NCBI GenBank assembly: GCA_964593555.1
Contig: CAZQIC010000004.1
Coordinates: 23,689 to 87,688 of the forward strand
Length of the DNA: 64,000 nucleotides
Reading direction: 5' to 3'
Source of the DNA: an uncultured Bacteroidia bacterium
Lineage (GTDB): Bacteria; Bacteroidota; Bacteroidia; JAFLBG01
Shown here in pieces: positions 1-41,114 of the stretch. How positions within the stretch are numbered: the stretch's first letter is position 1; each line of letters opens with the position of its first letter. The notes beneath the pieces are model-generated. The model was given only the letters and a program-made list of their open reading frames with translations, searched no databases and was not told where the DNA came from. Made by a program: the position numbers and the translations under genes.

Positions 1-838
1 TTCCATCGCCGCCATCATCAATGTAGATCAATAATTTTTGTCCATCGGGAGAAAGTCCGATGCTGGCATCATGGCCTGATGTATTTATTGGAGCGCCAAT
101 GCTCTTTGCCTGGCTCCATTTACCATTGTTGTTGGTAGAAATATAAATGTCCTCAAAATATTTTTTGTCTTCAGTCTGTGGCTGGTCTTCCTCGCCTGAT
201 TTGCGGCGGGTAGTAAATATCATCACTGATTCGTCAGCAGAGATCACGGATCCGTAATCAGCATATGGCGAATTTATTTCTTTCCCAACGTTATCAATAA
301 AAACACGAGCGGGTTTTGAGACAAGGTCTATTCCTGTGTTGCATTGAACAATTCGTTTGGTGATTTCTTCGCTCTTGGCGGCCGCATTATCTCCCGATAT
401 TTTTTGCTGATATTGTTTGTAAAATTTTATTGCTTTTTCCCAATCCATATTTAATTGATACGCCTGACCAAGCATATAATCTATTTCGGGATCAACATCT
501 GTATCTAATGAATAAGCCTTTTCAAGAAATGGTAAAGATTTTGTGCGGTAACTCGAAAAAAGGTAGCAATTGCCAATTTTCATATTGAGTGCGGCATTGT
601 TTGGATTAAATGTATTGGCTTGCAATAAAAAAGGCAGGGCTTCGGAATACATAAATGTTCCAACCTCGTACAGTTTGTTGCCTTCTTTTAAATTTTTTAC
701 AGCGGCTTTTAAGCCATCTTTATCATTGGGGAAATTTTCTTTTGTGAATTCAATGTTTTGTGAAAAATTCAGCAAAGGAATTGCCAGCAAAAAAAGTAAA
801 GCAAAAAAACGAATGGATTTAAAAAATGTTGCTTTCAT
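1..838 (-). CDS. TPR + PD40 (TolB-like beta-propeller) envelope protein, N-terminal part only; the 3' end lies beyond the left edge. Seventh paralog of the 26575-39680 array.
   Basis: Minus-strand translation from the ATG at 838-836 gives MKATFFKSIRFFALLFLLAIPLLNFSQ (signal peptide), then TPR-like helices. It continues ...VFIDNVGKEINSPYADYGSVISADESVMIFTTRRK...YFEDIYIS...GKWSQAKSIGAPINTSGHDASIGLSPDGQKLLIYIDDGGDG. This is colinear with the N-terminal halves of the six paralogs further right. There is no stop inside the window, so it is absent from the ORF track. Its ATG directly abuts the stop of 839..1894. Confidence 0.8.
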   Translation of the reverse strand, partial: MKATFFKSIRFFALLFLLAIPLLNFSQNIEFTKENFPNDKDGLKAAVKNLKEGNKLYEVGTFMYSEALPFLLQANTFNPNNAALNMKIGNCYLFSSYRTKSLPFLEKAYSLDTDVDPEIDYMLGQAYQLNMDWEKAIKFYKQYQQKISGDNAAAKSEEITKRIVQCNTGIDLVSKPARVFIDNVGKEINSPYADYGSVISADESVMIFTTRRKSGEEDQPQTEDKKYFEDIYISTNNNGKWSQAKSIGAPINTSGHDASIGLSPDGQKLLIYIDDGGDG

Positions 839-26574: not shown

Positions 26575-28164
26575 TTATTTTATTTCTTTTTCCAGGAGAA
26601 AATCTTTAGTGGTTTCGGGTTGAAATGATCCCATGTCATAGATCACAACAGCATCCACATATGTTTTGTATCCTTTCATCTCAACTGTAATAGCATACTT
26701 TCCCGGCTTAAGTGCCATTACATATTTACCAGTACTTTTAGAAGCCTTATAGGGAGTTTCAGTTTTAGAGGATAGGTCGGTCACAATAATTTCTGCGTTA
26801 AATTCCTTTTTTAAAGAATCACCAAGGATAATATTTCCTGAAACAATTCCATATCGCTGATCAGCATCGTTGAATGCGACTCTGTATATATCAAGGTCGC
26901 CATAACCACCTTCTCTGCTTGATGAAACATACGCTACTCTGTCGTTTGATGTAAATGAAATTGAACGATTTTCAAATGGTGTATTCAGCGGATAGCCTAA
27001 ATTCACAGGTTTACTCCAAGTGTTTTCTTCTTCGTTCCAAACAGCTTTAAAAAGATCATATTCTCCCATACTCGAGTGGCCTTCGGAAGAGAAAAAAAGC
27101 GTTTTGCCGTCTTCTGCAAGAAATGGAAAGTCTTCTTTGTATTTCGTATTAATGTTGGGACCAAGGTTTTGTGGAAGTCCCCAGCTGCCTGTTGGTAATT
27201 TACGGCTCATATAGATATCGGTTTCGCCAAAATTTTCTTTACGTTCACTTGCAAAAAAAATAATCTCTCCATTTGGTGAAAAAGATCCTGAACGCTCAAA
27301 ACCTTCGTTCACATTTTGATCTAGCTTTTTTATTTTTTTATAACTGCTTTTTACATTTTCTGTAACATAAATATTACCAAGGCTGTCAATGTGATCTATG
27401 TATACAATAATTTGTTTACCATCGGATGACATTCCCACAGCTTGTTCATCATAAACTGTATTCACAAACCGTCCAATATCTTTTGCTCTTTCCCATTTCC
27501 CGGTTTTTACATTGGAAGAGTAAATGTCAGAAGGGTAGTAGCCATCAAACTCAAGCCTGGCACCAACATTTTCTTTCCTTCGTGTAGTGAAAACAAGAAA
27601 GGATTCATCTTTATCAACCAAGGGATAATAGTCCGGGAATTCCGAATTTATTTCCTTTCCAACATTTTCAAATGTGACATTGACAGGATATTTTATAAGT
27701 TCTTTCCCGTTGTTACACATTTCAATTTCACGATCTACCTTTTCAATATCTTTTCCTTTTGCTTTTTCCTTGTATTTAGTATATGTGTTTATTGCCTCAT
27801 CAAAACGCATGGCATAATGATATGCTTTCCCCAGATAGTAGAGTGCTTCATTGCTGAATTTTTCCTGCTTCGTAACTTTTTCGAGATAGGGAATTGCAAG
27901 TGGTTTGTTAATGTTCGAATACAAATAACACAGTGCCGCCTTATATTGATAATCCATATTGTTCGGCTCATCCTTTATCAGTTCTTTATACACCTTTAAT
28001 GCCATTAAATAATTGGTGTGACTAAAATGCTCTTCGGCATCCTCGGGTTCAAAGCCTTTTTTTGGTCCTTTGCCAGGCTGGGAAAAGCAAAGTACAGGAA
28101 TGAGAAAAAGCATTACCAATGACGATGAAAATATACCGATATGTGAACCTTTGTGGACTCTCAT
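26575..28164 (-). CDS. TPR + PD40 (TolB-like) + CarboxypepD_reg-like protein, no OmpA domain (array paralog 6)
   Basis: The ATG at 28164 is preferred over TTG 28179. The N-terminus is TPR-like. The PD40-like repeats include NSEFPDYYPLVDKDESFLVFTTRR, SSDGKQIIVY, FSPNGEIIFFASER, LAEDGKTLFFSSEGHSSMGEYDLF and SNDRVAYVSSSREGGYGDLDIY. The C-terminus is IVSGNIILGD...TGKYVMALKPGKYAITVEMKGY. Confidence 0.8.
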   Translation of the reverse strand: MRVHKGSHIGIFSSSLVMLFLIPVLCFSQPGKGPKKGFEPEDAEEHFSHTNYLMALKVYKELIKDEPNNMDYQYKAALCYLYSNINKPLAIPYLEKVTKQEKFSNEALYYLGKAYHYAMRFDEAINTYTKYKEKAKGKDIEKVDREIEMCNNGKELIKYPVNVTFENVGKEINSEFPDYYPLVDKDESFLVFTTRRKENVGARLEFDGYYPSDIYSSNVKTGKWERAKDIGRFVNTVYDEQAVGMSSDGKQIIVYIDHIDSLGNIYVTENVKSSYKKIKKLDQNVNEGFERSGSFSPNGEIIFFASERKENFGETDIYMSRKLPTGSWGLPQNLGPNINTKYKEDFPFLAEDGKTLFFSSEGHSSMGEYDLFKAVWNEEENTWSKPVNLGYPLNTPFENRSISFTSNDRVAYVSSSREGGYGDLDIYRVAFNDADQRYGIVSGNIILGDSLKKEFNAEIIVTDLSSKTETPYKASKSTGKYVMALKPGKYAITVEMKGYKTYVDAVVIYDMGSFQPETTKDFLLEKEIK

Positions 28165-28248
28165 AATATCAGAAAACAAACAAGTTCGGTGCCAGTAAGC
28201 TAAATAAATTGTTAAAGCTTGTTAAATCAATATTCCTACGCAACATAA

Positions 28249-30714
28249 TTACTCGATAGTAATTCGCACATATTGGAACTTTTCGTAAGCAGATTTGTTG
28301 ACCAGGTAATCATTATTATAAGCCGGACCATTTACTGAACTGCTTATTGTTTTGAATATGATCTTTGAACCATCAATGCCATTCTCTTTTGTAGAATTAA
28401 TTATTTTATCTTTTGAATTCGCAGCTCTGTCAGCGGCAAGTTCTCTGTTACTATTGAATGCTCTTGTTGGAACATTGGATGCACTTGAGGTCATTGATAG
28501 AGTTACACTTCCCTGCGATTGAATTTTTGCAACAAGGGTTTTAATGAAGGTTTTATAATTCTCATCATTAATATTTACTTCAACAATATTATATTTAAAA
28601 AACATCTCAAACTGTTTATCGCTTACGGATGAAAGTGATGATGAGTTGTCGCGTTGGCTGCTTTTGCCTGGAGCTGTATCATCAAACGGGATAAGTTCTC
28701 CGCTGAAAGGTACTATTATAGCGTCGTCAAAGCCTTTTGCGATCATTTCCTCCTTAAGTTTTTTTGCTTCCGTAACAGACTTAAATGTACCTACATAGTA
28801 TATGTACCATCCATTATCTGTTTTGCGGTACTCTACATTTTTAACACCTTTAATACTGAAGGCATCATACAAAGCGGGCTTTTTAACCGAGCTGATCTGA
28901 ACTTTATATGTTTTCTCTGTGTAATTTTTTGCCTCCGCTGGTTTTTTATTTTCAACAACTTTATTTTCTTTTATCGGAACATTTTTGTTCTCGTTGTTAT
29001 TTCCTACAGGTTTATTTGTAGTGTTGTTTTTGTTTTCTTCAGGCTTTGGATTTTTGTTTTCTTCTGTTTTTTTATTTTTGTTATTCGCTTTCTCAAGCGC
29101 CTTCCTCATGCTTTCCTGCAGTTTAACAGGATCAAGGAAAATTTCTTTTTCAATTTCTTTGTAATCACTTCCTGCAGGAACAGTAATTTCTTCTTTAAAA
29201 AATTCTTCGTTGTCAATTGTATAAGATGCTGAATAAGTTTTTCCGGGCATCAGCGGTAATACATATTTACCTGTAATTGCGTTGGCTTTGTAAACACCAA
29301 TTTCACCTGTTTCAAGATCGGTGATAGTTATTTCAAGATCTTTTGGTAATGGTTTGCCTTCTACCGGAATAATTTTTCCGATGATAAGCGCAACCGAGGA
29401 AACTTTGGATGTTTCAAGCGAGATCATATATAAATCCTTATCTCCTCTGCTGTCCTTTCCTCCTGATGAATAGTATGCACGTTTTCCATCTGTAGAACTC
29501 ACATAGAAAATATCATCATCGGGAGTATTGATCGGAGGTAAAAGGTTAGTTGGTGTTGTCCAGCCGGAATCGTTTTTAGTTGTATAAAAAATATCAAAAC
29601 CGCCCATGCTTGAATGACCATTGGAACTAAAGAAAAGTGTAACCCGGTCAGGGTGGATAAATGGCGCATCTTCATCATACTCGGTATTTAAAGTAGGTCC
29701 CATGTTAGTGGCTAAGCTCCAATTACCATTGGGCAATCTCACGCACTTATAAAGATCACGACCGCCATATCCCCCATTTCTGTCACTTACAAAATAAAGA
29801 GTGTTGCCATCAGGGGTTACGCAGGCGCTTGGTTCCCAAGCCGTGGTATTTATATCGGAACCCATTTTTTCAGGAGCAGACCATATTTCACCTTCTAACG
29901 TACTGGAATAAATATTTCCGTCTCCACCATCATCTTTATAAATAAAAAGCTGGTATCCATCAGCAGTTAATCCAATAGTTGCCTCGTGTGCTGGAGTGTT
30001 AATGCTTGACCCTATTAACACAGGAGAACTCCAAGTCCCATCATCTTTGCGATGGCATATGTAAATATCTTCGTAAAACTGATCGTCATTTGTTCTGTCA
30101 TCGCCGGTACTTCCAGGTCTTCTTGATGTAAAAATCAACGTTGATTCATCGGCAGTGATCACGGGACTATAGTCAGGGTAAGCGCTATTCACACTATCAC
30201 CAAGATTAGTAATGGAAATATTTGTTGGAAGCGCGAGGTACTCCTTTGCATTTTGGCACATGTCGATCTGATGTGTAACCTCCTTACGCAGATCAGCTTG
30301 TTTAGTAGGGGAGAGGTAAGTTAAATACTTCTTATAATTTATTATCGCCGAATCTATTTTATAGGTAAGATGATGTGCCGCGCCTAAATAATAATAAACA
30401 TTTATTGGTGCGCCTTTTTCATGTGCCTCAAATGGTACGTATTTTTCATTCACGTTTGTTGCCGCCTTTTTCAAATAATACGCCGCCTTGGTTTTTTCTG
30501 CTGCCGATTTTATATAGCAAAAGCCAATCAGGTAATTGATGTTAGCATTGAGTGAGTCAAGCTTATAGGCCTCCAAAAAATTCTCTAATGCTTTTGGGTA
30601 ATTTTCTTCGAGTACGAGATAATTGCCTTCAACAAATTTTTCCTTATAAGTATAATTTTGCGCGTTAGCCCCCAAAATTAGAAAAAGAAAAAAAGAAACT
30701 GATATTAATCTCAT
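28249..30714 (-). CDS. TPR + PD40 + CarboxypepD_reg + low-complexity linker + SPOR + degenerate OmpA-like domain protein (array paralog 5)
   Basis: 821 aa. The N-terminal two-thirds are colinear with the neighbouring paralogs. A linker rich in K, N and E follows (NNKNKKTEENKNPKPEENKNNTTNKPVGNNNENKN). The SPOR pattern is YKVQISSVKKP...WYIYYVGTFKSVTEAKKLKEEMIAKGFDDAIIVPF. The C-terminal ~130 aa keep the OmpA_C spacing (VTLSMTSSASNVPT...NRELAADRA...FQYVRITIE) but lack GHTD and NRRVE. Confidence 0.8.
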   Translation of the reverse strand: MRLISVSFFLFLILGANAQNYTYKEKFVEGNYLVLEENYPKALENFLEAYKLDSLNANINYLIGFCYIKSAAEKTKAAYYLKKAATNVNEKYVPFEAHEKGAPINVYYYLGAAHHLTYKIDSAIINYKKYLTYLSPTKQADLRKEVTHQIDMCQNAKEYLALPTNISITNLGDSVNSAYPDYSPVITADESTLIFTSRRPGSTGDDRTNDDQFYEDIYICHRKDDGTWSSPVLIGSSINTPAHEATIGLTADGYQLFIYKDDGGDGNIYSSTLEGEIWSAPEKMGSDINTTAWEPSACVTPDGNTLYFVSDRNGGYGGRDLYKCVRLPNGNWSLATNMGPTLNTEYDEDAPFIHPDRVTLFFSSNGHSSMGGFDIFYTTKNDSGWTTPTNLLPPINTPDDDIFYVSSTDGKRAYYSSGGKDSRGDKDLYMISLETSKVSSVALIIGKIIPVEGKPLPKDLEITITDLETGEIGVYKANAITGKYVLPLMPGKTYSASYTIDNEEFFKEEITVPAGSDYKEIEKEIFLDPVKLQESMRKALEKANNKNKKTEENKNPKPEENKNNTTNKPVGNNNENKNVPIKENKVVENKKPAEAKNYTEKTYKVQISSVKKPALYDAFSIKGVKNVEYRKTDNGWYIYYVGTFKSVTEAKKLKEEMIAKGFDDAIIVPFSGELIPFDDTAPGKSSQRDNSSSLSSVSDKQFEMFFKYNIVEVNINDENYKTFIKTLVAKIQSQGSVTLSMTSSASNVPTRAFNSNRELAADRAANSKDKIINSTKENGIDGSKIIFKTISSSVNGPAYNNDYLVNKSAYEKFQYVRITIE

Positions 30715-30771
30715 ATCATGAGTTAGTTTAGTTTAAGCAAAACTCTACCTACAAAAATATGGAATTAAACT

Positions 30772-30810
30772 AAAAAAGGGGTTTATTTTTCAATAAAATA
30801 AACCCCTTTT
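30772..30810 (-). terminator. Rho-independent terminator between array paralogs 4 and 5
   Basis: 12-bp stem ggggtttatttt (30778-30789) / aaaataaacccc (30795-30806) with a 5-nt loop. On the minus strand it is followed by TTTTTT (30777-30772). It lies 20 bp after the stop at 30827. Confidence 0.7.
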
Positions 30811-30826
30811 CGGTTTGTTTTAGGGA

Positions 30827-33133
30827 TTACTCAATTATTTTAAGTTCTACCCTGCGATTGAGCTGCATGCCTTCCAGATTTGGTTTTCCGTCGGCTGTAG
30901 AATTTGGAGCCATTGGAACTGTTTCTCCGTATCCTTTGGCGATGATCCGATTTTTATCTATACCTCTTTTTATTAAATAATTCACGACCGACTGAGCTCT
31001 GTCTTTTGAAAGTTTAAGGTTGGTTTCGTCTTTACCTTTGCTGTCTGTGTGACCGGATACTTCAACTTTAATTCTTCCGTTTTCTTTCAAAAAGGTATAA
31101 AGTTTTTCTAATTCTATATCTGATTCTTTTCTTAGTAATGATTTATTTGAATCAAAGAAAACATTGTTAAGTACAATCGTTGCTCCCTTAACAATTGGAT
31201 CTAGTGTAACATCTTTAACTATTTCCTTAAACTCGGGTTGTTTTGGAACATTTATGTTCTCTGAATGGAACAGGTATCCTGTTGCATCGTACGCTATGTT
31301 GTAGTTTTTGCCTGTTTGCAATACAAAATAATATTTTCCGGAATTCTTATCTGTAAAAAACGCTCCGACAGATTCTCCTGTTTGATTATTCTTTACAGTC
31401 ACATTAACATTAGGAATTGTTTCTTTCTTTGTGTTTTTTACTACTCCTGAAATTGACAAAGTACCCGGTGTTTTGCTTTCGAAATTAATGGTGGTTAAAT
31501 CAACTTCTTTTAAAATTTCCTGATAAGGTCCCCCGGCCTGAATCGTAATTTTATCTGTAATGGGTTTGTAATCGGTTGATTCATACCTAACGGTATATGC
31601 TCTTCCTGTTGGCCCTCCATTAAGTGCTATTATATATTTACCGGTTTTTGAGTTTGGTCTTATTTCCTGAACAATTTTTCCGCTCTCGTCATCAATAACA
31701 CTTATTTGAACATTTTTAGCTTCCTTCAAATCTCCATCGAATGTAACTATACCTTTTAAAAGTGTGATAGGATCAACAATGCTGTTGGAAAGGGTTATGA
31801 GGTAAATGTCTTTATCACCCACGCCCGCTGTTTTGGCGGATGAATAGTAGGCTCTTTTTCCATCAGCTGATAATACATAGAATATATCGTCGTCGGGCGT
31901 ATTAATTGGTGCCCCCATATTTTTTATTTCTGACCAGGTCCCGTTTTCTTCTTTTGTGGTGTAAAAAACATCAAACCCCCCAGACGTTTTATGGCCATTG
32001 GAACTAAAAATTAAAGTAACACCATCAGGATGCATGAAAGGAGCATCTTCATCATACTCTGTATTAATTGCAGGACCCAGATTGGACGCTAAACTCCACT
32101 CTCCATTAGGAAGTTTTACGCAGCGGTAAATATCCCGGCCTCCTGATCCTCCTAGTCTGTCACTTACAAAGTAAAGTATATTTCCATCGGGTGAAAAGCA
32201 TGCGCTTGGTTCCCAAAAAGTGGAGTTAATATCTGAGCCCATCTTTTCTGGAACAGACCATGTTTCGCCCGTTAATTTACTCAGGTAAATGTTGCCATCT
32301 CCGTTATCATCTTTATAAATAAGCAGCTGTTCTCCATTTGCAGAAAGAGCAATAGCTGCCTCGTGTCCCGGCGTATTAATGTTGGGGCCAATAGATTCGG
32401 GGGTTGTCCATTCTCCCTTATTATCTTTGTGGCATATATAAATATCTTCATAGAAATCGCCTGTAGGGGTAAGTTCGTAGCCTATGCCGCCAGCTCTTCT
32501 TGAAGTAAAAATTAATGTTGATTCGTCGGCTGATATAACGGGGCTATAATCGGGATATGGGCCGTTAACAGTATCACTTAGTATATTAATTTTTGCTTCG
32601 GTGGGTTTTGAATAAATATCTTTTGCATTCACACACATTGCCAATTGGCGGTCAACCTCTTTCATTAGTTCGGTTTCGCGAGGTTTTATGTACGTTTTAA
32701 AACGCTCAAAACACCTAATCGCATCATCGAATTGATAATTGTACCTAAAGGCCAGGCCAAGGTAGTAATATGCGTTTGTCGGAGCGCTTTTCTCTTTTGG
32801 ATCAAACGGAATATAGTTTTCTGAAATGTCTAAAATGGATTTCTTTAAATAATAAGCTGCTCTAGATTTTTCACCCTGAGTATTGATAATACTAAAACCT
32901 ATATTGAAATTTATGTTGGCGTTTATTGAATCTATTTTATATGCGTCTTTAAAACTACTGAGAGCTTTTGTATAATTTTCGTCAAGCAGATTATATGCTC
33001 CATCAAGGAAATATTCTTTGTATTCTTTTCTCTCTTGTCCATAAATTAACCCCGTGGTACATAGTGCTAAAAAAAGAACAACTAGTGCATTGTAATCTTT
33101 ACGTAAAAACTTTAATTTCTTTGAAGTGGGCAT
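30827..33133 (-). CDS. TPR + PD40 + 2x CarboxypepD_reg + OmpA_C protein (array paralog 4)
   Basis: The ATG at 33133 (MPTSKKLKFL...LALCTTGLIYGQ) is preferred over TTG 33163. The C-terminus is canonical OmpA: NNVFFDSNKSLLRKESDIELEKLYTFLKENGRIKVEVSGHTDSKGKDETNLKLSKDRAQSVVNYLIKRGID...NRRVELKI. Confidence 0.85.
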   Translation of the reverse strand: MPTSKKLKFLRKDYNALVVLFLALCTTGLIYGQERKEYKEYFLDGAYNLLDENYTKALSSFKDAYKIDSINANINFNIGFSIINTQGEKSRAAYYLKKSILDISENYIPFDPKEKSAPTNAYYYLGLAFRYNYQFDDAIRCFERFKTYIKPRETELMKEVDRQLAMCVNAKDIYSKPTEAKINILSDTVNGPYPDYSPVISADESTLIFTSRRAGGIGYELTPTGDFYEDIYICHKDNKGEWTTPESIGPNINTPGHEAAIALSANGEQLLIYKDDNGDGNIYLSKLTGETWSVPEKMGSDINSTFWEPSACFSPDGNILYFVSDRLGGSGGRDIYRCVKLPNGEWSLASNLGPAINTEYDEDAPFMHPDGVTLIFSSNGHKTSGGFDVFYTTKEENGTWSEIKNMGAPINTPDDDIFYVLSADGKRAYYSSAKTAGVGDKDIYLITLSNSIVDPITLLKGIVTFDGDLKEAKNVQISVIDDESGKIVQEIRPNSKTGKYIIALNGGPTGRAYTVRYESTDYKPITDKITIQAGGPYQEILKEVDLTTINFESKTPGTLSISGVVKNTKKETIPNVNVTVKNNQTGESVGAFFTDKNSGKYYFVLQTGKNYNIAYDATGYLFHSENINVPKQPEFKEIVKDVTLDPIVKGATIVLNNVFFDSNKSLLRKESDIELEKLYTFLKENGRIKVEVSGHTDSKGKDETNLKLSKDRAQSVVNYLIKRGIDKNRIIAKGYGETVPMAPNSTADGKPNLEGMQLNRRVELKIIE

Positions 33134-33230
33134 GACAAATTGGGGACTTTTTGTGTGTAACAAATATAAGATTTAAAAGCGCCTTCCAAAATAAATTAGA
33201 GGGGAACAGAATTAAAAGCTGATGAAAAGT

Positions 33231-35588
33231 TTACTTGGTTATGGAAGTTACTTTGAACTCCACTCTACGGTTTTGCTGCATCCCATTAGGATCTGGTTTT
33301 CCATCAGCAAGTTTTTCACTGGCAACAGGAACGGTTGAACCATAACCCTTAGCAATGAGCCGGTTTTTCTTAATTCCCTTATAGAAATATGGGGCTATCT
33401 TATAAACTTTTCTTTGGGTACTTGTTAAGTAATCCACAACCGCTTGCGCCCTAAGCTGAGAAAGTTTTTGGTTTAAATCAGGTTTTCCCTGACCATCAGT
33501 GTGTCCTAAGATTTCGACATTCATATCTGGATTGTCAGCCAATAGTTTGTAAAGTTTTTCCAATTCAGGAATAGATTCTTTTTTAATTTTTGATTTGTTA
33601 GAGTCAAAGAAAATATTTTTTAACACCACTTTTTCCCCGGTTTCCATTTTGGAAAGTGTAACATCAAATATCATTTCGGAGTGCTCATTATCTTTTGGTA
33701 TATCAATATTTTCTGAATGATAGAGATAACCGCCTTCAGCATCAAACGAAACGTTATAGTTTTCACCTTTTTGCAGAGACATATAATATGCACCGGTTGT
33801 TGGGTTGCTGTAATATGTATCAACTATCTCCTCTGTTTTATTATTCTTAACAACAATTTTTGCTCCCGGGATAACATTTCCATTCTTATCCTTAAGTACT
33901 CCTGTTACAGAAACGGTTCCTTTGGTTTTACTCTTTAAGTTTACAGACCTCATGTCGAGTGTACGCTCAATGACCTGATAGGCACTTCCCGGCTCAATTT
34001 TTATGGTTTCCGAATAAGGTTGAAAATTATCGGCCTCATAGCTTATTGCATAGGTTCTTCCATCTTTGCCCGGGTTAAGGATCATCAAATATTTTCCGGT
34101 TTTTGAATTTGGTCTTATCTCGCTTACAGCTTGTCCTGTTTCAATATCTGAAACAATAATTTTTACGTTACCTGTAGTTGTTTCTTTTCCATCATAAGTA
34201 AGGAAACCTTTTAATAAAACTGTAGGTTCAACAATAACATCTCCCACATCAATTTGATAAAGATCTTTTTCGCCAACTCCCCCAACTTTTGCGGAAGAGT
34301 AATAGGCCCTTTTACCATCTGTAGATAATACATAAAAAATATCATCATCAGGTGTATTGATAGGGCTTCCAATATTTACCGGCAAATTCCATTTCCATTG
34401 TGTACTCTTATCCCTGTCTTCCTTTTCTTTTCTTATAACGTAAAAAATATCGAAACCGCCCATTCCTCTTTGGCCATTGGAACTGAAGAAAAGTGTAACG
34501 CCATCAGGGTGGATAAAAGGAGCATCCTCATCATATTCCGTATTAATTGTGGGGCCAAGATTAGTTGCCTTACTCCATTTGTTGTTAGGTAGTTTTATAC
34601 TTCTGTAAATATCTCTCCCTCCAAAACCACCTTCTCTGTCACTTACGAAATACAGTGTATTACCATCTGCTGTAACGCAGGCGTGCGTTTCCCATGCAGG
34701 AGTATTAATGTCATTAATGTCCGTCTCGTCAACTTTTAATGGCTTCGGTTCGTCCCAACTATCTCCCGATAAATCGCTCACATAAATGTCGCCGCCGTTT
34801 ATGCTTTTGTAAACAAAAAGCTGGTTACCGTTTGCGGAAATACTAATTGCGGCATCGTTGTCATTTGTATTAATATTAATTGCTTTTGGATCGGCCCATT
34901 CGCTTCCGTTTTTTGTACACATGTAAATGTCTTCATTGTATTTACCGTCCGGGCCAATTTCATTTCCAGTACTTCCTTCACGGCGCGAAGTAAAAAGCAG
35001 AACAGATTCATCCGCATTTATTATCGGACAATATTCAGCTTGTGCAGTATTTATTCTTTCGCCAATATTTTTAATGGTAACCTTACTCGGTTTTGAAGTT
35101 AATTCTTTTCCTACAACACAATTTTCTATAAATTTTCTAAGTTCTTTTTGTGCATCTTCGTTATCACCCAAAATAACTTTAAAGCGCTGAAAATTACTAT
35201 TGGCTGCTGCAAAATCAAAATTTAATAATTGAACTTGTCCTAAATAATACATCACATTGTCTGGGGCTTTCGTTTCGTTAGGATCAAATGGGTCATAATT
35301 TCTTGCGGTATTCTTGCTTGCTTTTTCAAAGTAGGGTACAGCTTTTAGTTTATCATTTACAGAGTTGAGGTAACACATGCCTATCTTGTAATTCACGTTG
35401 GCGTTGTTGCTATCAATTGCATACGCTTCCAAATATGTTTCGAGTGCTTTAGGGTAGTTTTTTTCAAGGAATAAATAGTTTCCTTCTTCGATTTTTTTTC
35501 GGCAGGTAGCTTTGTCTGATCCTGAAAAAGAACTGTTCCAGGCCATGACAAGAAAAACAACAATAAAAAATCTAAAAATTTTATTCAT
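33231..35588 (-). CDS. TPR + PD40 + 2x CarboxypepD_reg + OmpA_C protein (array paralog 3)
   Basis: 785 aa. It has the same architecture, with the OmpA_C segment ILGHTDGQGKPDLNQKLSQLRAQAVVDYL...NRRVEFKV. It carries an insertion (STQRKVYKIAPYFYKGIKKN) within the OmpA domain. Confidence 0.85.
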   Translation of the reverse strand: MNKIFRFFIVVFLVMAWNSSFSGSDKATCRKKIEEGNYLFLEKNYPKALETYLEAYAIDSNNANVNYKIGMCYLNSVNDKLKAVPYFEKASKNTARNYDPFDPNETKAPDNVMYYLGQVQLLNFDFAAANSNFQRFKVILGDNEDAQKELRKFIENCVVGKELTSKPSKVTIKNIGERINTAQAEYCPIINADESVLLFTSRREGSTGNEIGPDGKYNEDIYMCTKNGSEWADPKAININTNDNDAAISISANGNQLFVYKSINGGDIYVSDLSGDSWDEPKPLKVDETDINDINTPAWETHACVTADGNTLYFVSDREGGFGGRDIYRSIKLPNNKWSKATNLGPTINTEYDEDAPFIHPDGVTLFFSSNGQRGMGGFDIFYVIRKEKEDRDKSTQWKWNLPVNIGSPINTPDDDIFYVLSTDGKRAYYSSAKVGGVGEKDLYQIDVGDVIVEPTVLLKGFLTYDGKETTTGNVKIIVSDIETGQAVSEIRPNSKTGKYLMILNPGKDGRTYAISYEADNFQPYSETIKIEPGSAYQVIERTLDMRSVNLKSKTKGTVSVTGVLKDKNGNVIPGAKIVVKNNKTEEIVDTYYSNPTTGAYYMSLQKGENYNVSFDAEGGYLYHSENIDIPKDNEHSEMIFDVTLSKMETGEKVVLKNIFFDSNKSKIKKESIPELEKLYKLLADNPDMNVEILGHTDGQGKPDLNQKLSQLRAQAVVDYLTSTQRKVYKIAPYFYKGIKKNRLIAKGYGSTVPVASEKLADGKPDPNGMQQNRRVEFKVTSITK

Positions 35589-35602
35589 TCAAAACTCGTT
35601 AC

Positions 35603-37948
35603 TTATTTTTTAATCGGTACAATTTTAAACTCAACCCTTCTGTTTAATTGTCTTCCTTCAGGATTATCAGTTTTGTCGGGATTTTCATTCGGGGCAATAG
35701 GCTGCGATTCTCCTCTGCCAATTGTTTTGATCCGTGTTGCAAGAATTCCCTTGTCCGTAAAATGTTTTTTAGTCGCAGAGGCACGCTTCTGAGATAGGTT
35801 TACGTTAAATTGTTCGGAGCCTTTTGAATCCGTATGGCCGTAAATTTCCAGCCTGACATCCTTGTTTTCAGAAACGAATTTGTAGATACTGTCCAACTCT
35901 CTAACGGCGTCTTCTCTAACAAGGCTCTTTGCAAAATCAAAAAGTATTGGTTTGAATTGTACTGTTTTTGTTGGTTCATTATTATCATTTGATGCAATAG
36001 GTTGTTGTGAAATGTAGTCAGTGAACGATGTAACTTTGAATAAAGGAGATAAGCTGGTGTAATTTTTTGATTTCATCTTTAACCATTCCGAATAAGCTTG
36101 TTCCTTTGACTTTCCTGCCAAAGAAGGCTCCAATGCAACAAGGCTGTCCATATCAGCTAACACTGTATATATTTTTGCCTTGCGACCAACAACAACACCT
36201 TTTTCCTTGATGTCCTCAAATTGAATCTCCTGATAATAGTTTACTTCTTTTGCAGATTTAGGAATAAATATATCTAACGTATGATCCGGATATCCTTGCG
36301 ACTCAATTGATAAAGCATATTGGTTACCTGAAGGCAATGTATATAGTTTTTGTCCTAAAGAAGAAGAGGTTACATAATTTGTCGGGTCTTCATTATCACC
36401 ACGCTCTGTTATTTTTAACCTAGCAACTTCAGCAACAGAGCCATTGTTTTTTATAACTGCAAAAACTTTCCCATTGGTGGAAACTTTTGAAAGGCTGTCA
36501 ATTTTGTTTATGAGTTGAGTTGTTGCAAGAATTTTAGCTTCTGCGGAATCAACACCTAGATATGTTTGAAGATTTTGTGATGCATTGGGAACGTCAGGTG
36601 GAGACACGAGATATATGTCGAGATCTCCAAAGTTTTCTCCTTGAATAGAAGAGAAGTAGGCATGATCTCCTTTCGCGTTTAAAACAAAAAAGATATCGTC
36701 GGCTGCAGTATTAATTGGGTAGCCAATGTTTATAGGGCTAGACCAGCTGCCATCATCCTGAAGTTTTGTTTGAAATATATCAAAGCCGCCCATGCTTTTG
36801 TGTCCTTCAGAAGAAAAATACAAAGTTTTTCCATCAGGATGAATGAAGGGGCTGTCATCATCAAAACGGGTATTTATTGTTGATCCAAGATTCTCAAGGC
36901 TACTCCAAGAACCATCAGCTTGTTTTTTAGATTTATAAATATCTTTTCCGCCAAATCCTCCGGGTCTTTCACTAACTATATACAGCGTGGTTCCATCTGA
37001 AGATTGGCTCACACTTGGTTCATGATATTTCTTTGAGTTTACAACCTCGGGTAATCTTGCGGGACGCGACCATTTTCCGTCCGTTGTTGCTTCAGATTTC
37101 CAAATATCACTTTTTCTATATAGGTAAAGTGCTTTTCCATCTGTCGTAAGAGAGATCGAAGCATCATGATCACGCGTGTTTATTGAAGTGCTAATTTTTT
37201 CAGCATCAGAAAAAAGTGACTTAAAAAGATGAATTCTTGTATCCCCTGAATCAATCTTTGAAGAGGTTTTCCATTCGGAATTTCCTGCGACTCTTTTGGA
37301 GATGTAAACATCTTCATAGTATTTTCCATCATCATCTATTTTCCCTCCTGTTGTACCTTTTCTTTTTGATGTAAAAACTAAAATTGATTCATCGCCTGAA
37401 ATTGCAGGAGCATAATCCGCACTTTCGGAATTAACATTTTTGCCAAGATTGTTGATCTTGATTTGTAATGGTGTTTTTATATATATAGCAGCTGTGTTAC
37501 ATTGAGAAATATAATTATCAATTTCTTCAATGTCTTTAATAGCACTTTGGCTTTGTCCAACATATTCCTTTAAAATATTCAGCATCTCTATCGCATCCTG
37601 AAATTTATGAGCGATCTGATAAGTTCTGCCCAGATAATAATAGATCTCCGGTAAAGTGTCCTTCATGTTTTTTAAAGCGGCTTCAAAAAAAGGAAGTGCG
37701 TTGAGTTTATCTGATGCATTAGAGGAATAAAAATAACTTACACCAAGTTTGTAGTTGTAGGCAAAATTGTTGGGGCTTAGTAAAACAAGGTCTTTGAAAA
37801 GTGGGATTGATCGGCCATAATCACCTACCATGTAGGAGCGGTTAGCTTTTTTATAAAGTCTTTTTTCCTTACCACTTTCAGCTCTTAAGCCATTGAAGCT
37901 TGATAGAGCAATTGTAATACAACACAGAAAAGTAAAAATCCTCTTCAT
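35603..37948 (-). CDS. TPR + PD40 + OmpA_C protein (array paralog 2, most divergent middle region)
   Basis: The ATG at 37948 (MKRIFTFLCCITIALSS...) is preferred over TTG 37963. The PD40-like repeats include SGDESILVFTSKRKG, TTDGKALYLY, SSDGTTLYIVSERPGGFGGKDIY and HPDGKTLYFSSEGHKSMGGFDIF. The OmpA_C segment is IYGHTDSKGSEQFNVNLSQKRA...NRRVEFKI. It lies only 14 bp from paralog 3. Confidence 0.85.
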   Translation of the reverse strand: MKRIFTFLCCITIALSSFNGLRAESGKEKRLYKKANRSYMVGDYGRSIPLFKDLVLLSPNNFAYNYKLGVSYFYSSNASDKLNALPFFEAALKNMKDTLPEIYYYLGRTYQIAHKFQDAIEMLNILKEYVGQSQSAIKDIEEIDNYISQCNTAAIYIKTPLQIKINNLGKNVNSESADYAPAISGDESILVFTSKRKGTTGGKIDDDGKYYEDVYISKRVAGNSEWKTSSKIDSGDTRIHLFKSLFSDAEKISTSINTRDHDASISLTTDGKALYLYRKSDIWKSEATTDGKWSRPARLPEVVNSKKYHEPSVSQSSDGTTLYIVSERPGGFGGKDIYKSKKQADGSWSSLENLGSTINTRFDDDSPFIHPDGKTLYFSSEGHKSMGGFDIFQTKLQDDGSWSSPINIGYPINTAADDIFFVLNAKGDHAYFSSIQGENFGDLDIYLVSPPDVPNASQNLQTYLGVDSAEAKILATTQLINKIDSLSKVSTNGKVFAVIKNNGSVAEVARLKITERGDNEDPTNYVTSSSLGQKLYTLPSGNQYALSIESQGYPDHTLDIFIPKSAKEVNYYQEIQFEDIKEKGVVVGRKAKIYTVLADMDSLVALEPSLAGKSKEQAYSEWLKMKSKNYTSLSPLFKVTSFTDYISQQPIASNDNNEPTKTVQFKPILFDFAKSLVREDAVRELDSIYKFVSENKDVRLEIYGHTDSKGSEQFNVNLSQKRASATKKHFTDKGILATRIKTIGRGESQPIAPNENPDKTDNPEGRQLNRRVEFKIVPIKK

Positions 37949-38057
37949 TAACGGTAGACGCAATTAACTATGAAAACTATTTATTTTCAAAAATTACCTG
38001 CAAATGTAAGGTTTTTTACTTCCAATACCCAAAATTAAGAGGTTGGAAATGAGGGAA

Positions 38058-39680
38058 TTATTTTGAAGTGGGGATAACAATAGGCTCCAAATCAATGGCT
38101 TTGTTGGTTATTCCATAGCTGGAATCATCGGGAACCTTAATTTTTTTGGAAAGCATCTCCTCGCCATCAATCGTGTAAGAAATTTGGTAATTCTTTCCCG
38201 GAGTAAGGATGTATAAGTATTTCCCGGTACTGGAGTTGGGTGAATAGTCTCCAATTATATCGTTCGACTCCAGATCGGTTATAGTAATCATGGCAAAGTT
38301 TGGGACATTTCCATCTTTGTCTAATAACGTACCCTTATATACGGTAAGCGGAGTTTCCCTTTGATCAGAAAAGGTGATCATATAAATATCCTCATCTCCA
38401 TAACCACCCTTTTTAAAAGAAGAATAATATGCTCTTTTGCTTCCAACGGTGGGCACAAAAAATATGTCATCGTCAGTTGAGTTTACCGGATACCCCATAT
38501 TCATTGACTCGGACCATTTACCTGTATCGGATAGCATAGAACTAAAAAATATATCATATCCTCCCATTCCTTTGTGACCTTTGGAGCTGAAAAAAAGCGT
38601 AAACCCGTCCGGGTGAATGTATGGAGCTTCTTCATCGAAAGGGGTATTCACCTGAGTTCCCAAATTTGTAGGGCGGCCCCATTCACCATTCGGAAGTTTT
38701 TTTGAACGGTAAATGTCTTTTCCTCCCATTCCTCCTGGCATATTACTTGTAAAATAAAGTAGAGTTCCATCTGCAGAAATACTTGCGGCCGATTCGTTAG
38801 ATGTGGAGTTAATATAATCGTTCATTTTTTTTGGGGCAGACCACGTGCTTCCCTCGAGTGTGCTGGTGTATAGATTAGCATCACCACTATCATCTCTTTT
38901 AACCAATAATTTTTGACCATCTATTGATAAGGCTACTGTTGCTTCATTGCCTTCTGTATTTATTGTAGGTCCAATACCAAGAGGTGTGGTCCATCCTTCA
39001 TTCGCCTTATAAGAAACATAAATATCTTCATAAAAGTTTCCATCCTTATCCTGTTTGTTACCGGTTGATCCTTTTCTTTTTGAAGTGTAGATCAAAGTCG
39101 ATTCATCAGCATTAAAAACCGGTGAGTAATCAGGATACTTAGTGTTTATAGATGGGCCAAGATTATCAATTTTTATTTGGATAGGAACAGAAGAAAGTTC
39201 TTTGCCATTTTTACAAATATCAATTTGTCTTTTTACTTCAGTTATTTTACTGGCGTCTATTGCAGAAGCGGTGATCAATAATTTCTGGTATGTTGATATG
39301 GCTTCATCAAATTGGTAGTTGAGGTGATATGCCTTTGCTAAATATTCATATACATTCATTGGCGCATATTTATCCTTCATGGCACCGGTGTATTTTGTTG
39401 AAGCTTTTGCAGCAGCGAGTTCAAGGTATTTGATCGATTTTTCTTTTGCAATTGGTGAGTTAAGGTAACAGATCCCGATTTTGTATTTTATGGCGATCGA
39501 CTCCTTTAAAACGGAATCAATTGAAAGGTATAAAGGCAGCGCTTGTTCGAAATTTTCAGCAACATAAAAAGCTTCTGCAACAGTATATTTTTTTTCCAAG
39601 TTTGCACCGCCGGCAATTTTTGAGCCGGGCGCACAAAAAGAAAGTAAAAAAGCAAATGAAAATAAAAGAAGCGACTTCAT
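38058..39680 (-). CDS. TPR + PD40 + CarboxypepD_reg-like protein, no OmpA domain (array paralog 1)
   Basis: 540 aa with a lipoprotein-like signal (LLSFCAPGS). It has the same TPR and PD40 layout and ends after one CarboxypepD_reg-like domain (VYKGTLLDKDGNVPNFAMITITDLESNDIIGDYSPNSSTGKYLYILTPGKNYQISY). It starts 6 bp after the E2 gene stop. Confidence 0.85.
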   Translation of the reverse strand: MKSLLLFSFAFLLSFCAPGSKIAGGANLEKKYTVAEAFYVAENFEQALPLYLSIDSVLKESIAIKYKIGICYLNSPIAKEKSIKYLELAAAKASTKYTGAMKDKYAPMNVYEYLAKAYHLNYQFDEAISTYQKLLITASAIDASKITEVKRQIDICKNGKELSSVPIQIKIDNLGPSINTKYPDYSPVFNADESTLIYTSKRKGSTGNKQDKDGNFYEDIYVSYKANEGWTTPLGIGPTINTEGNEATVALSIDGQKLLVKRDDSGDANLYTSTLEGSTWSAPKKMNDYINSTSNESAASISADGTLLYFTSNMPGGMGGKDIYRSKKLPNGEWGRPTNLGTQVNTPFDEEAPYIHPDGFTLFFSSKGHKGMGGYDIFFSSMLSDTGKWSESMNMGYPVNSTDDDIFFVPTVGSKRAYYSSFKKGGYGDEDIYMITFSDQRETPLTVYKGTLLDKDGNVPNFAMITITDLESNDIIGDYSPNSSTGKYLYILTPGKNYQISYTIDGEEMLSKKIKVPDDSSYGITNKAIDLEPIVIPTSK

Positions 39681-39686
39681 GCTGAT

Positions 39687-41012
39687 TTAAATAGTTCTAT
39701 TAGTGTCAAATTGTTCGAGATAATCTCCTACACGTCTTAAAAAGCTTCCTCCAAGAGCTCCATCTACAACTCTGTGGTCATAAGATAGAGACAAATACAT
39801 CATGTGTCTTATGCCAATTGTATCACCCTGTGGTGTTTCAATTACTGCAGGCTTTTTACGAATTGCACCAACAGCCATAATCGCCACCTGGGGTTGATTA
39901 ATAATCGGAGTTCCCATTACATTCCCGAATGTACCGACATTCGTAATTGTAAAAGTTCCTCCCTGAATTTCATCGGGAACCAGTTTATTGTTGCGCGCCC
40001 TTGAAGCCAAATCGTTAACAGCTTTTGTAAGTCCCAATAAATTTTTGTGGTCTGCATCTTTAATTACCGGCACAATAAGATTGCCACTTGGTAATGCGGT
40101 TGCCATTCCAATATTTATATGTCTGCGTTTAATGATCTTTGTTCCATCAACGGAAACATTTACCATTGGGAAATCTTTCAATGCTCTTACAATTGCTTCA
40201 ATGAATATTGGGGTAAAAGTGATTTTCTCTTTTTCGTTTTTTTCAAAGTGACTCTTTACTTTGTTTCTCCACTCAACAATACTTGTTACATCAGCCTCAA
40301 CATATGAAGTAACATGTGGTGATACGTGCTTCGACATTACCATGTGATCGGCAATGAGTTTACGCATACGATCCATTTCAATTATTTCATCATCACCACC
40401 AACGGAGATTGAAGGTTTGGCAATTGATGTTCCATTGCTGGTTGCAGTAGCTGTGTTATGATGAACAACCTGCTCTGTAACAGGAGCGCTTACTTGTTTT
40501 CCGCGATTTGGAACATAGGCAAGAATATCATTTTTAGTAACTCGTCCGTCTTTACCAGTACCTGTTATTGTATCTAATTCGTTTAAAAGAATTCCCTCCT
40601 GCTTTGCTATGTTCTTTACAAGAGGAGAATAAAACTTATTCGATGATGAATAGTTTTCTGCTTTTGCAACCGGTGGAGCAACTGCTGTTTGGGTTTTAAT
40701 AGCCGAGCCTGAAGCAAGGGGTGCAGCGGTTTCTTTCACTGGTGTTTTTGTAATAACAGAAGCATCACCACCACCTGTAGAAATAATTGCGATTGGAGAT
40801 CCTACTTTTATTACATCGCCTTCTTTGAATAATTGTTTAACAAGCACACCTTCGCTGGGAGACGGCACTTCAGAGTCAACCTTATCTGTAGCAATTTCTA
40901 ACACAGCCTCATCAGCCTCGATCTTATCGCCTTCTTTTTTGAGCCATTTAATAATAGTTGCTTCGGCAACACTTTCGCCCATTTTGGGCATTATCATCTC
41001 AACTTGTGCCAT
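39687..41012 (-). CDS. Dihydrolipoamide acyltransferase (E2 component of a 2-oxoacid dehydrogenase complex)
   Basis: 441 aa. The lipoyl domain is MPKMGESVAEATIIKWLKKEGDKIEADEAVLEIATDKVDSEVPSP. A Pro/Ala linker and a peripheral subunit-binding domain (SPLVKNIAKQEGILLNELDTITGTGKDGRVTKNDI) follow. The catalytic domain ends LSLSYDHRVVDGALGGSFL. Confidence 0.9.
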   Translation of the reverse strand: MAQVEMIMPKMGESVAEATIIKWLKKEGDKIEADEAVLEIATDKVDSEVPSPSEGVLVKQLFKEGDVIKVGSPIAIISTGGGDASVITKTPVKETAAPLASGSAIKTQTAVAPPVAKAENYSSSNKFYSPLVKNIAKQEGILLNELDTITGTGKDGRVTKNDILAYVPNRGKQVSAPVTEQVVHHNTATATSNGTSIAKPSISVGGDDEIIEMDRMRKLIADHMVMSKHVSPHVTSYVEADVTSIVEWRNKVKSHFEKNEKEKITFTPIFIEAIVRALKDFPMVNVSVDGTKIIKRRHINIGMATALPSGNLIVPVIKDADHKNLLGLTKAVNDLASRARNNKLVPDEIQGGTFTITNVGTFGNVMGTPIINQPQVAIMAVGAIRKKPAVIETPQGDTIGIRHMMYLSLSYDHRVVDGALGGSFLRRVGDYLEQFDTNRTI

Positions 41013-41114
41013 ACTTTAATCTAAATAACCGATGTTTCTCAACTCCTGCAAAAATAACTAAGTTTATGGAATTAAACCCTTTTTTGCATCCATATAAATG
41101 TAGAAATTTATTAT

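Follow-up and report, generated by a model that had tools for sequence, protein, structure and literature searches.

A conserved E2-linked array of six PorE/CHU_0125-like paralogues in an uncultured Bacteroidia bacterium, candidate periplasmic adaptors for outer-membrane complexes

Why would a bacterium keep, one behind the other on a single strand, six diverged genes for proteins of one design, and what could these proteins do? The question is raised by a 64,000-nucleotide stretch of DNA from an uncultured Bacteroidia bacterium (positions 23,689 to 87,688 of contig CAZQIC010000004.1, assembly GCA_964593555.1), hereafter the window, in which positions 26575-39680 are filled by an array of minus-strand genes that we name A to F in transcription order. 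A preliminary description of this sequence had read the products as TolB/Pal-like fusion proteins. We find that, by domain and family models, the six copies are paralogues in the Bacteroidota PorE / CHU_0125 superfamily, but not PorE or CHU_0125 themselves. We put a probability of about 0.6 on the reading that these ancient, individually retained paralogues act in the periplasm, by analogy with PorE, as adaptors or tethers that serve outer-membrane complexes. Already known are the family with its domain plan and its numerous paralogues (PMC7192894); fresh, but modest, are a conserved locus of variable copy number linked to a 2-oxoacid dehydrogenase E2 gene, the co-variation of the family with PorP/SprF, and an OmpA-fold tail.

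The six same-strand genes were reproduced by open reading frame (ORF) calls exactly at the coordinates and lengths first reported, all frames are intact, and the sequence motifs quoted in the preliminary description are seen in an alignment of the copies. PD40 (Pfam PF07676) is significant in all six products, at 69-100 bits against a gathering cut-off of 20.9 (74 bits in copy A), and domain searches thus find the propeller blades on which the first reading depended. OmpA_C (Pfam PF00691, cut-off 27.2 bits) was matched in B (63.2 bits), C (55.6 bits) and D (80.8 bits), and CarboxypepD_reg in C (37 bits) and D and weakly in F, with weak TPR matches in the same Pfam scan of the six copies. The shared design of signal peptide, TPR, PD40 propeller and CRD, with or without OmpA_C, is thereby borne out.

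The NCBIfam models for PorE (NF052230) and CHU_0125 (NF053607) both match all six copies, with E-values from 1e-43 to 1e-100, but no copy reaches either cut-off. Copies A to F score 200.6, 215.1, 283.3, 303.7, 178.4 and 147.2 bits with the PorE model (cut-off 600) and 184.5-337.7 bits with the CHU_0125 model (cut-off 620), the latter score equalling or exceeding the former in five of the six; copy A comes to about 200 bits with both. With scores so far below both curated cut-offs, the array proteins are best classed as paralogues within the superfamily. The TolB model (TIGR02800) gives 17-33 bits on the six copies (best 32.6; cut-off 343), and the Pal model (TIGR02802) gives 47.5-62.7 bits on B, C and D (cut-off 125). 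Thus, the earlier reading of a TolB/Pal fusion stands for the fold, the propeller being TolB-like and the C-terminus Pal/OmpA_C-like, but not for the family, as the TolB and Pal equivalog models are widely missed and TPR helices replace the TolB N-terminal domain. Elsewhere in the genome, the best PorE candidates are C36 (537.9 bits) and C4:5944-8169 (531.5 bits). In the genome as a whole, no CHU_0125 equivalog was found (best score 383 bits against 620) and no canonical TolB equivalog was detectable (best 43.8 bits against 343).

[quoted passage not shown] Copies C and D follow this order with an extra CRD and B does so broadly, whereas A and F are without OmpA_C and E carries SPOR and a divergent OmpA fold. 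PorE also has a lipoprotein signal (PMC7192894), in contrast to the signal-peptidase-I type of the array proteins, and the array genes are not adjacent to T9SS genes. Flavobacterium johnsoniae likewise has a large family of PorE-like paralogues that carry a signal peptide but are not lipoproteins, with more than 20 per genome, and T. forsythia has 14 PorE homologues (PMC7192894). About 22 family paralogues were counted in the present genome (4.87 Mb in 240 contigs), and PorP/SprF genes adjoin four of these. Operons that combine a PorE-like gene with an SprF-like shuttle and type-B cargo are described from F. johnsoniae (PMC12618676), Fjoh_3950 being one such gene. The array genes, in contrast, do not lie in PorP/SprF-cargo operons but form a same-strand set at a conserved locus bordered by E2 and an exonuclease gene. 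In Cytophaga hutchinsonii, CHU_0125, the "OmpA-like outer membrane integrity protein", has the TPR, PD40 and OmpA_C plan in common with the array. The proteobacterial TolB-Pal pair, likewise periplasmic and wall-associated, shares the propeller fold and the Pal-type OmpA_C tail, but there these are two proteins, whereas the array joins them in one polypeptide. Furthermore, TolB begins with an alpha/beta domain that binds TolA and has a propeller of six blades, where the array proteins have TPR helices and five repeats, and Pal has a lipoprotein signal where the array proteins lack a lipobox.

An AlphaFold2 model of copy D, built on 81 homologues (predicted local distance difference test (pLDDT) score 90.3, predicted template modelling (pTM) score 0.73), comprises helices at residues 9-175 (TPR), five four-strand repeats at 180-448, beta-sandwiches at 457-546 and 558-639, and an alpha/beta domain at 652-766. 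[quoted passage not shown] A propeller of six to seven blades had been expected. However, the copy D model has five PD40 repeats, a count that rests on the sequence repeats, the DSSP strand pattern and agreement with the published model of PorE, whose propeller is described as five-bladed (PMC7192894). In a PDB sequence search with copy D, only OmpA_C relatives were matched and none for the TPR and propeller head. The top match to its OmpA_C was 7f4v chain aB; this chain of 872 aa carries the name photosystem I PsaB, and the OmpA_C aligns with its C-terminal residues 732-864, an unexpected fusion in that entry.

As judged by eye, the N-termini of most copies and of the orthologues examined end in Ala, Ser or Gly before Gln and have no conserved lipobox Cys. 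Such a pattern is usual for signal peptidase I in Bacteroidota. Together with the non-conservation of the Cys in the copy A N-terminus, it marks the array proteins as predicted periplasmic non-lipoproteins.

The copies differ at their C-termini. Copy B (35603-37963, minus strand, 786 aa, probable start codon ATG at 37948) consists of a signal peptide, TPR, PD40 with an insertion, a variable middle region and a canonical OmpA_C. Copy C (33231-35588, minus strand, 785 aa) has a signal peptide, TPR, PD40, two CRDs and an OmpA_C with an insertion, and copy D (30827-33163, minus strand, 778 aa, probable start codon ATG at 33133) a signal peptide, TPR, five PD40 repeats, two CRDs and OmpA_C. In PorE, the side chains that contact peptidoglycan are Asp576, Asn584 and Arg591 (PMC7192894). 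Copy B carries this Asp/Asn/Arg triad in GHTDSKGSEQFNVNLSQKRA, and all three copies have it as GHTD-x7-N-x6-R, with spacing identical to that of PorE. The OmpA_C domains of B, C and D are thus canonical, with a pocket predicted from sequence to bind the diaminopimelate (DAP) stem of peptidoglycan. Copies A (38058-39680, minus strand, 540 aa) and F (26575-28179, minus strand, 534 aa), in contrast, have a signal peptide (of the signal-peptidase-I type in A), TPR and PD40 (five repeats in A) and end with a single CRD-like sandwich; OmpA, SPOR and transmembrane segments are all absent, as is any wall anchor.

Copy E (28249-30714, minus strand, 821 aa) does hold wall-binding modules, behind its signal peptide, TPR, PD40, one CRD and an N/K-rich linker. 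The first is a SPOR domain (Pfam PF05036, cut-off 21) at residues ~600-666 (28717-28917, minus strand), which scores 22.7 bits in the whole protein and 28.5 bits as an isolated segment and is also precomputed for the copy E orthologues P0007 and P0009. In other bacteria, SPOR binds denuded or septal glycan. The 140 C-terminal residues after SPOR have no Pfam match, and a Pfam scan of the last 151 aa at E-values up to 10 returned noise only, so this domain (28252-28671, minus strand) was recognized as an OmpA fold only through structure prediction and Foldseek. Its AlphaFold2 model has a pLDDT of 93.9, and the top Foldseek matches are without exception OmpA_C/MotB/Pal domains, at template modelling scores, normalised to the target, of 0.41-0.66. 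An exhaustive HMMER search found the domain in 409 representative clusters; among the 150 listed, it ends at most 10 residues from the C-terminus in 148, and about half have PorE-like N-termini. In its invariant motif, SAS.VPT...N..L...R, the Asn and Arg of the OmpA pocket are kept, whereas the Asp is replaced by Val-Pro. With SPOR and this OmpA-fold tail, copy E is predicted to be wall-directed through two modules. The modelled tail is uncatalogued, which is a modest fresh point.

How old is the array? Pairwise identity among the six copies is 31-52% over ~460-830 aligned residues, D/E and C/D being the closest pairs. A tree built from 43 heads groups each of the six, with support of 99-100, with a gene from the eight-gene array of a sister-genus genome (G001), in unchanged order; copy D has two co-orthologues there. 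The copy A orthologue in that genome (C70 77748, 539 aa) is 61% identical. Orthologues of B were found in G001, G005 and G010, of C in G001, G005 and G022, and of F in G001, G022 and G025, and the deeper orthologues of several copies, in G005, G022 and G010, reach other families. A search with copy A alone returned no relative among the genome contigs, whereas the alignment-based scan did find relatives. These results bear out the earlier statement that this is not a recent amplification. Comparison of D, E and F with a 95-99% identical metagenomic contig gave ratios of nonsynonymous to synonymous substitution rates (dN/dS) of 0.078 for D (C-terminal part), 0.110 for E (97% identical orthologue) and 0.053 for F (N-terminal part), values that indicate purifying selection on these three copies.

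The locus itself is conserved. The E2 gene (39687-41012, minus strand), with 2-oxoacid_dh, Biotin_lipoyl and E3_binding domains (Pfam), lies 6 bp upstream of copy A and forms the conserved left border of the array, and the gaps between consecutive genes from A to F are 94, 14, 67, 112 and 69 bp; both spacings are as first described. No E1 or E3 gene is among its immediate neighbours, in agreement with its earlier description as a lone E2. The order GT, E2, PorE-like genes, DnaQ-like exonuclease and FAA hydrolase is syntenic across the relatives fetched (5/5) and recurs in Bacteroidia, with one to eight PorE-like copies between the borders, which answers the earlier question of whether such arrays recur in related genomes. 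E2 is the next gene upstream of the PorE-like gene or genes in each of the five relatives fetched, and among 80 public Bacteroidia loci this is so in 23. This synteny with variable copy number, together with the same-order orthologues, points to the array being an old expansion of a single E2-linked gene, and in the literature searched we found no description of such a locus. In the window and at L014, L016, L025, L042, L047, L060 and other loci, a lone E2 gene ends 0-48 bp before the first PorE-like gene on the same strand, as it does in all five relatives. The two genes look co-transcribed, and there is no apparent functional reason that would link a cytoplasmic acyltransferase with a periplasmic protein.

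The Bacteroidetes-type -7 box is TAnnTTTG. On the minus strand, such boxes lie at 41049-41056 (36 nt upstream of E2), 38001-38037 (two boxes, upstream of B), 33161-33168 (27 nt upstream of the D ATG) and 30752-30759 (37 nt upstream of E, directly past a terminator), so that five occur in ~0.5 kb of array intergenic DNA as compared with 33 on this whole 64 kb strand. The terminator had been placed at 30772-30810; we find there, at 30773-30811 on the coding (minus) strand, a strong intrinsic terminator-like hairpin with a 17-bp stem and a T-run, after copy D. At least two transcription units had been proposed. The terminator-like hairpin would split the array, and the promoter-like boxes together with it suggest about four units, namely E2-A, B-C, D, and E-F with downstream genes. 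A sigma-70 promoter scan was uninformative, giving fewer matches than shuffled sequence.

What could the shared head bind? In P. gingivalis, PorE binds PorP through its WD40 domain, and its OmpA_C with the peptidoglycan-binding residues is essential (PMC12773672). Furthermore, PorE, PorP and type-B cargo have been proposed to form a wall-anchored complex (PMC9143113). The present genome holds 16 PorP/SprF genes, 12 of which have no adjacent PorE-like gene, and four non-array paralogues directly adjoin PorP/SprF genes. We compared copy numbers in 26 genomes that represent one family of the class apiece, save for two that both belong to this family; 25 of the 26 have 2-29 family copies. The number of PorE-like genes follows that of PorP/SprF genes (Spearman rho 0.92; 0.90 with genome size removed) and has no link with that of TonB-dependent receptors (rho -0.15), which were used as the control because SusD, the control family dropped, is absent from most relatives. 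This co-variation supports a family-wide coupling to PorP/SprF barrels, not a pairing of the array genes specifically. SusD/RagB genes, missing in most sampled genomes of the class, number 8-17 in G002, G012 and G013. In these three genomes, PorE-like and PorP/SprF genes are few, a pattern suggestive of two contrasting lifestyles with regard to the envelope.

In the reading that we favor, periplasmic adaptors or tethers, each product would be exported to the periplasm by its signal-peptidase-I signal peptide. By analogy with PorE, the shared head of TPR and five-repeat PD40 propeller would dock on the periplasmic face of outer-membrane proteins, the likeliest partners being PorP/SprF-like type-B shuttle barrels of the T9SS encoded elsewhere in the genome, with one or two CRD beta-sandwiches serving as spacers. 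The tail would set the attachment: B, C and D would hold peptidoglycan through the OmpA_C pocket and copy E would attach through SPOR and its re-tooled OmpA-fold domain, as predicted from the fold, whereas A and F, having no anchor, would be unanchored adaptors or competitors. The array would have arisen through duplication of a single gene downstream of the E2 acyltransferase gene and would now be read from about four promoters. Several observations weigh against this reading. The six copies score 147-304 bits on a PorE model with a cut-off of 600, and two better candidates exist in the genome; the array proteins, unlike P. gingivalis PorE, are not lipoproteins; and A and F have no means of tethering anything to the wall. 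No PorP/SprF gene was found beside the array or elsewhere on the contig, so the putative array-barrel pairing is drawn from the family-wide co-variation and analogy. Moreover, the co-variation statistics ignore phylogeny, and a shared driver, such as general reliance on the T9SS, could explain them.

The main rival, which we consider a serious but clearly less probable account, is that the array serves envelope integrity or division independently of the T9SS, as a TolB-Pal stand-in like CHU_0125, the heads binding general outer-membrane components and the OmpA_C or SPOR tails holding the outer membrane to bulk and septal peptidoglycan. Deletion of CHU_0125 damages outer-membrane integrity (PMC5891637), the CHU_0125 model equals or beats the PorE model in five of six copies, and the propeller and tail match TolB and Pal, respectively, at the fold level. 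In the same direction point the SPOR of copy E, a septal-glycan binder in other bacteria, the lack of a detectable canonical TolB in the genome (43.8 bits against 343), and an array context of housekeeping rather than T9SS genes. However, the TolA-binding N-terminal domain of TolB is absent, with TPR helices instead, there are five repeats rather than six blades, and the best CHU_0125 score in the genome, 383 bits, is far from 620. Nor would a general integrity function predict the close tracking of PorP/SprF copy number, and at least 20 copies per genome go far beyond its need.

The fate of A and F raises a narrower alternative, in which they, and possibly others, would act in the periplasm as soluble scaffolds or in a chaperone-like way, with no part in tethering, and might for example escort or regulate the partners of the anchored copies. 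This would suit proteins that end after one CRD-like sandwich without OmpA, SPOR or transmembrane segment, and such short forms of ~510-560 aa are common across the family, two of them in this genome (C78 and C87) adjoining PorP genes. Nonetheless, Pfam and NCBIfam scans revealed no chaperone or enzymatic motif, and since the heads of A and F are homologues of the anchored copies' heads, it is simpler to assume a related binding role; we therefore hold the scaffold account to be quite improbable. That the copies are decaying or silent duplicates, as the preliminary description had allowed, or an assembly artefact is effectively refuted. No frame is broken in any of the six, promoter-like boxes and a terminator are present, 1:1 orthologues of every copy occur across genera and families, and dN/dS is 0.05-0.11 for D, E and F. 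Identities of 31-52% exclude collapsed or recent repeats, so that recent amplification and misassembly were both ruled out.

The interest of the adaptor or tether reading lies in the view that PorE-type proteins connect the outer-membrane machinery of Bacteroidota, T9SS shuttles and cargo complexes for example, with the cell wall. To this theme, the locus contributes a conserved ordered set with three predicted anchoring modes, a quantitative tie of family size to PorP/SprF family size, and the OmpA-fold tail. These leads may be useful for work on T9SS surface anchoring and the Bacteroidota envelope, though they add to a theme that is already known. A bolder version, which we regard as speculative and unlikely as a whole, is that the E2-linked array might be a conserved central toolkit serving orphan PorP/SprF barrels in trans. 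Its tails would then sort type-B proteins into bulk-wall (B, C, D), septal or denuded-glycan (E) and mobile (A, F) classes, and SAS.VPT might be a new wall-ligand specificity in at least 409 clusters.

Some further features of the genome and the window can be added. The two PorE candidates outside the window (G000:C36:21801-23948 and G000:C4:5944-8169), which may be true PorE orthologues and score just below the 600-bit cut-off, look highly alike by eye; the pair could be a real duplication or could reflect strain or contamination heterogeneity, the contamination of this metagenome-assembled genome being 5.25%. The preliminary description also spoke of seven copies, the seventh being a 691-aa paralogue with OmpA_C at its end that is partly in the window: its N-terminal 279 aa are encoded at 2-838 (minus strand), and it runs past the window start. 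Downstream of a Prc-type tail-specific protease are ORFs of 1120 aa (18786-22148) and 249 aa (22164-22913), both on the minus strand and with zero Pfam or NCBIfam matches. Finally, two adjacent minus-strand genes that overlap by 4 bp, 16254-17795 and 17792-18673, encode OmpA_C proteins of 513 and 293 aa, which have no TPR/propeller head and whose similarity to PorE/CHU_0125 is confined to the CRD and the OmpA tail.

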